Virus record (IMG/VR): IMGVR_UViG_2703719347_000001
Span: 1-38,222 of that record
DNA length: 38,222 bases
Origin: a virus
Lineage: Duplodnaviria; Heunggongvirae; Uroviricota; Caudoviricetes
Strand: one strand, 5' to 3'
Below are positions 26,754 through 27,658 of this stretch, piece after piece. The translations under genes were made by a program, and so were the position numbers. Below the pieces are notes generated by a model that ran no database searches, was not told where the DNA came from, and was given only the letters and a program-made list of their open reading frames with translations. Every line of letters starts with the position of its first letter. Positions within the stretch are counted from its first letter, which is position 1.

Positions 26754-26851
26754 GACATACCAATAACTCTTGTCTAAAAAGCCAGCAAGATAAAAAGTCA
26801 GTATTCACGACCACCAGCGTGTTTACTGTACTGCACCAAGTTTACAGGTAC

Positions 26852-26875
26852 AAAAAACCCGCTCAGTGGCGGGTT
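26852..26875 (-). terminator. Intrinsic terminator, copy 2 of a duplicated terminator, 3' of the lipoprotein moron
   Basis: Minus strand AACCCGCCACTGAGCGGGTT followed by UUUUUU; core identical to the copy at 27528-27552. Confidence 0.75.
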
Positions 26876-26952
26876 GCTATCACAGCTATATATTTACTTA
26901 TTATGCCGTTACTAACATTTATCTTCGACATATAATCGAAAACAAGGTTTAC

Positions 26953-27369
26953 TTAAAACTCTGCTTTCATTTTATCCGGGAATTTTTTATTTGCAGCATA
27001 ATAACTACCAAGTACATAAGCGTTCATTTGCTGCTCTACATCAACCCGACATGCCGCACTAGAACAAGCTCCACTGATAAGCCCAAAAGAACTCCCTTTA
27101 GCAGAGAGATCAGCTTTGATTTCCTCTACAGTGTTTTTCCCCATAGCAACTACACACCCTGTCACAATATATCTAGCCTTCACATCATCCATGCTAAGGA
27201 TAGTAGTTTTCGCAATTTTGCTGTATCCATCATTTTTATAAACATCCATGGCAAACGCACGGCAATCTGTATAATACGGACTTGCTTTAACTTGCGAATA
27301 CTCAGGTAATTTCATACCTGCACAACCAACTAAACAAAAACCTATCGCTGCTATTAATACCTTTTTCAT
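26953..27369 (-). CDS. Lipoprotein of unknown function (moron)
   Basis: Start at MKKVLIAAIGFCLVGCAG (signal peptide with lipobox LVGC); multiple Cys in mature part; strongly AT-rich compared with flanks. Confidence 0.7.
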   Translation of the reverse strand: MKKVLIAAIGFCLVGCAGMKLPEYSQVKASPYYTDCRAFAMDVYKNDGYSKIAKTTILSMDDVKARYIVTGCVVAMGKNTVEEIKADLSAKGSSFGLISGACSSAACRVDVEQQMNAYVLGSYYAANKKFPDKMKAEF

Positions 27370-27527
27370 TACAGTCATAACCTAGAAGCATCATTGAAAC
27401 TAATTTATTAAATAATCATCGAGTTTCTGGAATACAGACGTTAACCATCTCTCCAAAATCTAAAAGATAATAAGAAAAAATGTTTAACGCACCAATCCAT
27501 TTCATAGTTTCATGAGACATCTGGCAC

Positions 27528-27552
27528 AAAAAAACCCGCTCAGTGGCGGGTT
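27528..27552 (-). terminator. Intrinsic terminator, copy 1, tR'-like, downstream of the putative late promoter
   Basis: Minus strand AACCCGCCACTGAGCGGGTT followed by a U7 run; about 65 nt downstream of the candidate promoter. Confidence 0.75.
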
Positions 27553-27598
27553 CTTAAATCTTATCAACGGTAGACATACAAAGCCCATCGTTGGGAAA

Positions 27599-27627
27599 AT
27601 CTTATCCATATTTTTTGAAAAATGCAA
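27599..27627 (-). promoter_or_regulatory. Candidate Q-dependent late promoter (pR'-like)
   Basis: Minus strand TTGCAT - 17 nt - TAAGAT immediately downstream of the Q stop; a short terminated leader follows. Confidence 0.4.
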
Positions 27628-27658
27628 GCATCATGTCGTCATCTTCGGCGAAAACCAT

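Follow-up and report, generated by a model that had tools for sequence, protein, structure and literature searches.

The moron concept of Juhala and Hendrix is well represented among lambdoid phages, where bor and lom of lambda, stx, and cspB/cspF of the Escherichia coli K-12 prophage Qin are each a discrete optional gene of lower guanine-plus-cytosine (GC) content, located at an intermodule site and equipped with its own terminator and a candidate promoter. One known slot for such cargo is the interval between the late antiterminator gene Q and the holin gene. In lambda, Q acts together with a unit composed of the promoter pR', the 194-nucleotide (nt) 6S RNA leader, and the terminator tR'. 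Our analysis concerns the corresponding interval of IMG/VR virus record IMGVR_UViG_2703719347_000001 (Caudoviricetes), a lambda-like E. coli prophage examined over a stretch of 38,222 nt, referred to as the window; in this module, its identity to phages Ayreon and mEp460 is 99.5% to 99.8%. Behind Q, between an upstream terminator (T1) and a downstream copy of it (T2), the window carries an uncharacterized lipoprotein gene. We consider it likely that this cassette is an autonomous accessory-gene moron placed directly after the tR' of a lambda-type late operon. It shares the features of the lambdoid morons listed above. Unlike them, it is closed by a terminator that copies the operon's own tR', its cargo belongs to an uncharacterized family, and its expression in the prophage is a prediction.

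A preliminary description of the window had reported identical terminator copies about 676 bp apart. They proved to be an exact 24-nt direct repeat (minus strand, AACCCGCCACTGAGCGGGTTTTTT; plus strand, AAAAAACCCGCTCAGTGGCGGGTT) with copies at 27529-27552 and 26852-26875, so that the two starts are 677 bp apart; a seventh T at 27528 extends T1 and accounts for the coordinate 27528 given earlier. Even with up to three mismatches allowed, T1 and T2 were the only matches in the window, and none of 100 shuffled sequences gave any. Both copies form G+C-rich hairpins of 7 to 10 bp with a 6-nt loop, followed by a U-tract, with folding energies of -14.1 kcal/mol (z = -3.7) for T1 and -12.0 kcal/mol (z = -2.2) for T2. 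A terminator scan of the window picked up T2, and T1 is annotated as a terminator in phages Ayreon and SfV, as is T2 in Ayreon. An Rfam search returned no family at threshold, the subthreshold matches being to attenuator leaders and caused by the terminator hairpins.

We compared the window with relatives without the gene, as the preliminary description had proposed. Phages vB_EcoM-720R4 (99.4% identical) and SfV (97.4%) possess the same Q, pR', orf75, and methylase genes in flanks that are 97% to 99% identical to those of the window, with one terminator and no lipoprotein gene. When 720R4 is aligned with the window, the left flank of T1 is joined to the right flank of T2 (GTACCTGTAAACTTGGTGCAG...), which makes the difference exactly 677 bp and repeat bounded, the register being ambiguous inside the 24-nt repeat. 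The homology breaks coincide with the terminator edges on both sides. This alignment identifies the cassette as a precise insertion/deletion polymorphism. Among 5,426 complete E. coli genomes, the full terminator-gene-terminator unit was present in 215 (about 4%). In about 130 further genomes, the match was limited to a stretch of 36 to 40 nt over T2 and its right flank, and we read these, by match length alone, as single-terminator sites of the 720R4 type.

In each of six E. coli carriers examined, the T1-T2 spacing was 677, and T2 was identical, with the loop CACTGA. The loop of T1 is CACTGA in the window, Ayreon, and a Shiga toxin 2c (Stx2c) phage, CGCTGA in an Stx2k phage and strain E2863, and CGTTGA in strain WCHEC035148. 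Exact identity of the two copies is thus lineage specific and not a fixed feature of the cassette. When the right flanks are included, T1 (followed by TGTGCC...) is similar to the lone terminator of SfV and Qin, and T2 corresponds to the 720R4 allele. Because the right flanks match alleles that occur separately in these phages, the pair looks like two tR' alleles bordering a cargo and not like a fresh target-site duplication. We also observed a weak alignment on the minus strand between the approximately 125 nt located 3' of T1 (27400-27528) and of T2 (26720-26851), for example, TGG..TGGT.CGT.AA ... CTT.TTATCTT ... TTTTAGA. The similarity in the first 90 nt or so after each copy is marginal, with 94 of 2,000 shuffles scoring equally well, and it may be what is left of a longer duplication of ancient date, or the AT-rich composition may account for it.

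The assignment of T1 as a tR' depends on the module upstream of it. The Q protein, whose start is probably the ATG at 28411 (250 amino acids [aa]), matches the structures of lambda Q (7ubm_Q, E = 1e-37; also 4mo1 and 7ubj), bears the name Q or ydfT in the annotations of Ayreon, SfV, and E. coli genomes, and is of the type found in K-12 Qin. Its promoter, which the preliminary description had placed at the Q stop codon about 65 nt from the terminator, can indeed be aligned with lambda pR' (TTGACT/17/TAAATT) and has the same geometry. The hexamers show little or no variation among eight related Q modules, the -10 element of Qin being TAAAAT. The 10-mer CAACGATGGG at the transcript start is identical in lambda pR' and invariant in 8/8 modules aligned. 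In lambda, the AACGAT contained in this 10-mer is a sigma70-dependent pause and Q-loading element, and by analogy, it would play the same role in the window. In most E. coli ydfT-type modules, including that of K-12 Qin, DNA homology extends no further than the 3' end of T1, at about query position 923. Taken with the lambda Q structure matches and CAACGATGGG, this homology end identifies T1 as the tR' of a lambda-type late unit, as had been suggested for the upstream copy.

A transcript starting near 27592 and ending at T1 would be a leader RNA of about 64 nt, predicted to fold into a 5' stem-loop and the terminator hairpin (-21.8 kcal/mol, z = -3.3). By analogy, this leader is the counterpart of lambda 6S RNA, and read-through of T1 by Q-modified RNA polymerase is predicted from lambda. 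The two systems are alike in the Q homologue, the promoter geometry, CAACGATGGG, and the intrinsic terminator downstream. They differ in the length of the leader, in the CXXC-rich insertion of the window Q, which produces a DnaJ_CXXCXGXG-like match, and in the presence of two more terminators ahead of the lysis genes. Within the leader region, we noted that the 10-mer GATAAGATTT, which holds the -10 element TAAGAT of pR' (27597-27606, minus strand), recurs 41 nt downstream at 27556-27565, just 5' of the T1 hairpin, and places a second -10-like sequence at approximately leader positions +28 to +33. This second copy is conserved in SfV and 720R4 and not in K-12 Qin; it is a possible second sigma70-dependent pause site.

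The cassette differs from its surroundings in composition, its body having 35.8% GC and the lipoprotein coding sequence 38.5%, compared with 47.7% for Q, 48.0% for the methylase gene, and 53.0% for the window; its base composition is foreign to the backbone. Variable presence, distinct composition, and a downstream terminator of its own were thus all found. This agrees with the earlier account of an AT-rich gene for a 138-aa lipoprotein with the lipobox LVGC and several cysteines, which corresponds to the open reading frame (ORF) at 26953-27378, and of a promoter-gene-terminator layout, in which the terminator and the polymorphism were observed and the promoter stands at candidate level. The candidate promoter lies about 85 nt upstream of the lipoprotein ATG, and the Salmonella homologue (locus L007) has TTGGTA/18/TATCAT at equal distance from its ATG, which makes a promoter belonging to the cassette a conserved candidate at the level of the consensus. 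Related prophages did not show the gene with a single terminator and uniform GC content.

The lipoprotein begins with MTVMKKVLIAAIGFCLVGC, followed by AG, and combines a basic n-region, a hydrophobic h-region, and a lipobox fitting [LVI][ASTVI][GAS]C. G18 and C19 are invariant in an alignment of eight sequences and nearly invariant among 10 homologues, and four more cysteines are conserved beyond that of the lipobox. Lipidation at Cys19 is predicted, and the alanine at position +2 (no aspartate, Lol dependent) probably directs the protein to the outer membrane. Ratios of nonsynonymous to synonymous substitution rates of 0.08 to 0.18 against six homologues show that this is a real coding gene under purifying selection. 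In an AlphaFold2 model (predicted local distance difference test score, 79), the protein is all alpha, fold searches with this model returned generic helical-bundle neighbors only, and the folded periplasmic domain would hold two disulfides.

The exact protein occurs on at least 1,000 contigs, annotated just as "hypothetical protein" or "lipoprotein." No match was found in Pfam or NCBIfam at an E value of ≤0.1, among PDB sequences, or among PADLOC models at an E value of ≤1. In PHROGs, it matched phrog_4748 alone, a family of unknown function. These searches bear out the earlier statement that the family is not recognized. When 1.84 billion representatives were searched exhaustively with a profile, eight matches (50% identity representatives) were obtained, all inside the family, and a second profile search gave 35 clusters (90% identity), all from Enterobacterales and none annotated. 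The hosts are E. coli, Salmonella, Klebsiella and Citrobacter phage-plasmids of about 110 kb, Buttiauxella, Hafnia, Edwardsiella, and Serratia. As sampled by these profiles, the family is small and confined to prophages and phage-plasmids of Enterobacterales. Searching the literature by protein accession and by subject turned up no study of the lipoprotein.

Homologues in other settings provided further information on the cassette. The Salmonella homologue has 76% protein identity, with synonymous sites saturated (proportion of synonymous differences, pS = 0.67), and lies behind a different Q (DUF1133/lambda-Q-like), with a truncated methylase gene and a holin gene after it. It is nevertheless flanked by CCCGCCACTGAGCGGGTTTTTTTGTACCTGAAAC upstream and a diverged copy, CCCGCATTGCGCGGGTTTTTGTATCCGAAAC, downstream, which indicates that the terminator-bracketed arrangement is old. 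Other homologues follow Q in lambdoid prophages, lie beside VapBC in the early-left region of Rac-like Salmonella prophages, with a different terminator, occur in the replication region of the phage-plasmids, or, in the case of one distant family member, are found among transposases. The occurrence of homologues in such varied contexts with terminators of their own argues that the gene acts as free-standing cargo. In phage-plasmids from Buttiauxella, Klebsiella, and metagenomic contigs, a conserved second lipoprotein of 99 aa with the lipobox LSGC or LSAC is encoded 10 nt downstream of the homologue (loci L008, 4446-4745; L019, 751-1050; L022, 5431-5730), which suggests a two-lipoprotein operon; a gene for this partner was looked for in the window and is absent there.

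The position behind T1 is occupied by other cargo as well. In E. coli SWHEFF_69 (NZ_CP055019.1; locus L013, 3400-4050), an unrelated ORF of 176 aa, for which no Pfam or PADLOC match was found, begins directly after the T1 hairpin, whose U-tract gives way to AAATTATTTTTT. This ORF is closed by its own, different terminator (ACCGCGTTCTCGCGGTTTTTTT), after which the backbone resumes; in this strain, tR' may be disabled, with the cargo terminator acting as the effective tR'. K-12 Qin has cspF/cspB at the cassette position, and in strain E2863, the sequence past T2 switches at once to a tRNA gene and a late region of the Stx phage type. At least four cargos (the lipoprotein gene, the 176-aa ORF, cspF/cspB, and tRNA-stx modules) begin within about 20 nt of the tR' hairpin. 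Several cargos and switches at the terminator edges argue that these edges are recurrent recombination boundaries.

That the slot is the site where Stx phages carry stx, as had been pointed out before, holds in a more specific form. All 15 Stx2c-converting phage records of the phage collection (LC727876-LC727890) and phage phiSTEC1575-Stx2k (OQ243220.1) contain the cassette, with both terminator copies and 98.6% to 100% protein identity. The order in the Stx2c phage LC727876.1 (locus L004, 8048-12790) is Q, T1, lipoprotein gene, T2, orf75, methylase gene, two tRNA genes, and stx2c A and B. The layout is repeated in the Stx2k phage (locus L005, 6090-10429), except that a different gene replaces that for the methylase. 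Since the cassette lies between Q and stx2, it does not replace stx but is located upstream on the same pR' transcript path, and pR' transcription of stx2c must cross two tR' copies. The window prophage has the identical cassette behind the same Q; unlike in the Stx2c and Stx2k phages, where tRNA genes and stx2 lie beyond it, the cassette is followed by orf75, methylase, and lysis genes, and stx is absent.

Considering these data, we propose a model for the expression and exchange of the cassette. In the lysogen, pR' would fire constitutively as in lambda, with transcripts ending at T1, and the lipoprotein gene would be transcribed from its own sigma70 promoter candidate (TTGGTG/17/TATTAT). 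T2 would end this transcript, leaving the methylase, holin, and endolysin genes silent. After export and lipidation at Cys19, the lipoprotein would be sorted to the outer membrane and face the periplasm as a small helical, disulfide-stabilized domain. Upon induction, Q-modified RNA polymerase would pass T1, T2, and the third terminator, T3, such that the lipoprotein gene would be coexpressed with the late genes and also, where the phage is of the Stx2c or Stx2k type, with stx2. In this scenario, a promoter-bearing gene between tR' and the holin gene needs a downstream terminator, and a copy of tR' in this role provides both insulation and homology for precise gain or loss. The terminator repeat would also be a joint for recombination, allowing the cassette to enter, leave, or move between phage backbones.

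Several observations weigh against our reading of the cassette as an autonomous moron. T1 and T2 differ by one or two loop bases in three of the six E. coli carriers examined, the -35 hexamer of the candidate promoter fits the consensus at three of six positions and the promoter was not called in the scan of the window, and the polymorphism, with its second terminator copy, could have arisen by gain or by loss. Furthermore, the lipoprotein gene is codirectional with the late operon, which is compatible with expression as a late gene only. According to such an account, the gene, located between Q and the holin gene, would have no promoter of its own and would be expressed by Q-dependent read-through, with a role in lysis or exit, either in envelope breakdown or in blocking the readsorption of progeny to debris, and T2 would be a redundant second tR'. 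The weak promoter fits this account, as does T3 in the same operon, since Q must cross several terminators anyway. It is difficult to reconcile, however, with homologues outside late operons, in early-left and replication regions, each with its own terminator, or with a promoter-like motif that keeps its position across saturated divergence. In addition, phages whose Q and lysis genes are the same manage without the lipoprotein gene, and Rz1 and the remaining lysis set are complete. We regard this account as unlikely.

A second alternative concerns the history of the cassette. If the bracketed arrangement were ancestral, 720R4-type sites would be deletion scars of recombination between T1 and T2, and 720R4 does carry the exact T2 allele (AC loop, then GTACCTGTAAAC) on the T1 left flank, the expected product of such a crossover. 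The age of the bracketing, as judged from the Salmonella homologue with its terminator and diverged copy despite saturated synonymous sites, and the excess of 215 carrier genomes over the approximately 130 genomes matching only T2 and its flank are likewise in favor of loss. The single-terminator allele of SfV and Qin (continuing with TGTGCC...), however, matches the T1 side and resembles an unoccupied ancestral site, and the low GC content marks the cassette body as foreign either way, such that loss alters the history of the element and not what it is. We consider loss a serious contender, with a somewhat less than even chance of being correct. In contrast, we find it very improbable that T1 and T2 arose as a target-site duplication when a self-mobile element (a transposon or an integron-like cassette, for instance) inserted. 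Identical direct repeats around a discrete insert and the constant 677 bp in every E. coli carrier examined would be expected of such an element. But the insert contains a single conserved ORF, encodes neither a transposase nor an integrase, and lacks inverted repeats at its ends; the right flanks are the two tR' alleles found separately in SfV and 720R4; the loops of T1 and T2 differ in half of the carriers examined; and the repeat is a terminator of the functional type common to phages without the cassette. To our knowledge, a duplication of at least 24 nt also far exceeds the known lengths of target-site duplications.

With respect to the function of the lipoprotein, Bor/Iss (serum resistance), Cor and T5 Llp (FhuA masking), and TraT are alike in being small lipoproteins of lysogens, and the analogy to them is a functional one only. 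The window lipoprotein resembles them in lying outside the core lysis set and in being probably anchored to the outer membrane. It differs from them in its all-alpha model and in its linkage to Q and not to tail or receptor-binding genes, and no sequence or fold similarity was found, which for Cor and T5 Llp refers solely to fold searches of PDB and BFVD. We rejected Bor/Iss, Ail/Lom, Ivy, MliC/PliC, PliG, and LprI as identities of the protein, since there was no Pfam or NCBIfam profile match and the all-alpha model had generic helical-bundle neighbors only. It is also not the Rz1 o-spanin, as PF06085 (E = 3e-21) matches a separate ORF at 24141-24326, embedded in Rz; no match to a core lysis protein was found.

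No tail or receptor-binding module is linked to the lipoprotein gene, which in isolated instances has toxin-antitoxin or Lit-like (Peptidase_U49) genes as neighbors. Together with its behavior as free-standing cargo, this argues for an accessory and not a core phage function, and such contexts are compatible with heterotypic phage exclusion. Our tentative guess, which we hold with low confidence, is that the protein is a lysogenic-conversion envelope factor protecting the lysogen, most plausibly by blocking the entry of other phages. Protection against serum or lysozyme and a part played at lysis are possible alternative roles. A bolder proposal, to which we attach even less confidence, is that the lipoprotein founds a new class of envelope factors of prophages and phage-plasmids, acting in heterotypic phage exclusion or host interaction and coinherited with stx2c in O157:H7, and that the tR' hairpin of ydfT-type Q modules is a general joint for cassette exchange.

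The layout of the cassette is ordinary, even textbook, and its cargo is an unstudied, widespread protein. The layout illustrates how a temperate phage may carry a gene expressed in the lysogen just upstream of its lysis genes without host death: T1 would keep the constitutive late promoter out, the T2 copy would keep the cargo transcript in, and the same repeats would permit clean gain and loss of the cassette. The main practical interest lies in the cargo, a strongly conserved and uncharacterized lipoprotein that about 4% of complete E. coli genomes encode. Should it prove to affect colonization, phage sensitivity, or resistance to serum or lysozyme, a new factor of lysogenic conversion would be added to those of pathogenic E. 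coli.

Table 1. Features of the cassette and of the adjoining late region, in coordinates of the window
Feature	Position	Strand	Basis or details
T1, upstream terminator copy, tR' analogue	27528-27552	-	Repeat, hairpin, Ayreon/SfV annotation, end of Q-module homology
T2, downstream terminator copy, cassette end	26852-26875	-	Repeat, scan, hairpin, Ayreon annotation
677-bp present/absent unit (one repeat copy plus cassette body)	26876-27552	-	Alignment with vB_EcoM-720R4
Lipoprotein gene, 141 aa (138 aa from ATG at 27369)	26953-27378	-	ORF, phrog_4748, conservation
Candidate cassette promoter	27467-27495	-	-35 TTGGTG 27495-27490, 17-nt spacer, -10 TATTAT 27472-27467
Late antiterminator Q, ydfT/QuuQ type, lambda-Q relative	27659-28453	-	PF03589, E = 4e-53; phrog_127; lambda Q structures
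pR'-type promoter	27599-27627	-	-35 TTGCAT 27627-27622, 17-nt spacer, -10 TAAGAT 27604-27599
AACGAT, -10-like, at transcript start inside CAACGATGGG	27586-27591	-	Alignment with lambda pR'
orf75, 75 aa, first gene past the slot	26526-26753	-	Backbone; phrog_331, weak winged-helix-like match
N6/N4 DNA methyltransferase	25323-26375	-	PF01555, E = 2e-42
T3, third intrinsic terminator (GGCCACGTCAGGTGGCC, then T-tract), methylase-holin gap	25292-25316	-	Scan; Ayreon and SfV annotation
Lysis cassette	24079-25318	-	Holin ORF 25040-25318, endolysin 24543-25040, Rz 24079-24558, Rz1 24141-24326

The minus-strand order around the cassette is a DUF968 gene, Q, the cassette, orf75, the methylase gene, T3, and the holin, endolysin, and Rz/Rz1 genes (Table 1). 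The position of T3 implies that the late transcript passes three terminators ahead of the lysis genes, and orf75, which is also found in phages without the cassette, and the methylase gene may form a second insulated unit.

An ArcA-modulated small RNA of 193 nt, sRNA-17, has been described from an mEp460-like prophage of E. coli K1 RS218 (PMC7719688). We rejected a location of sRNA-17 inside the cassette, as its 5' end matches the window at 35291-35320 (minus strand) with two mismatches, in the early region about 8 kb away, and it is unrelated to the cassette. Further cargo positions exist in the prophage: ORFs with DUF3950 and DUF1398 (22887-23587, plus strand) occupy the gap between Rz and the small terminase gene, which is the position of bor in lambda, and a gene for an Ail/Lom outer membrane protein (3025-3624, minus strand) follows the tail-tip gene.

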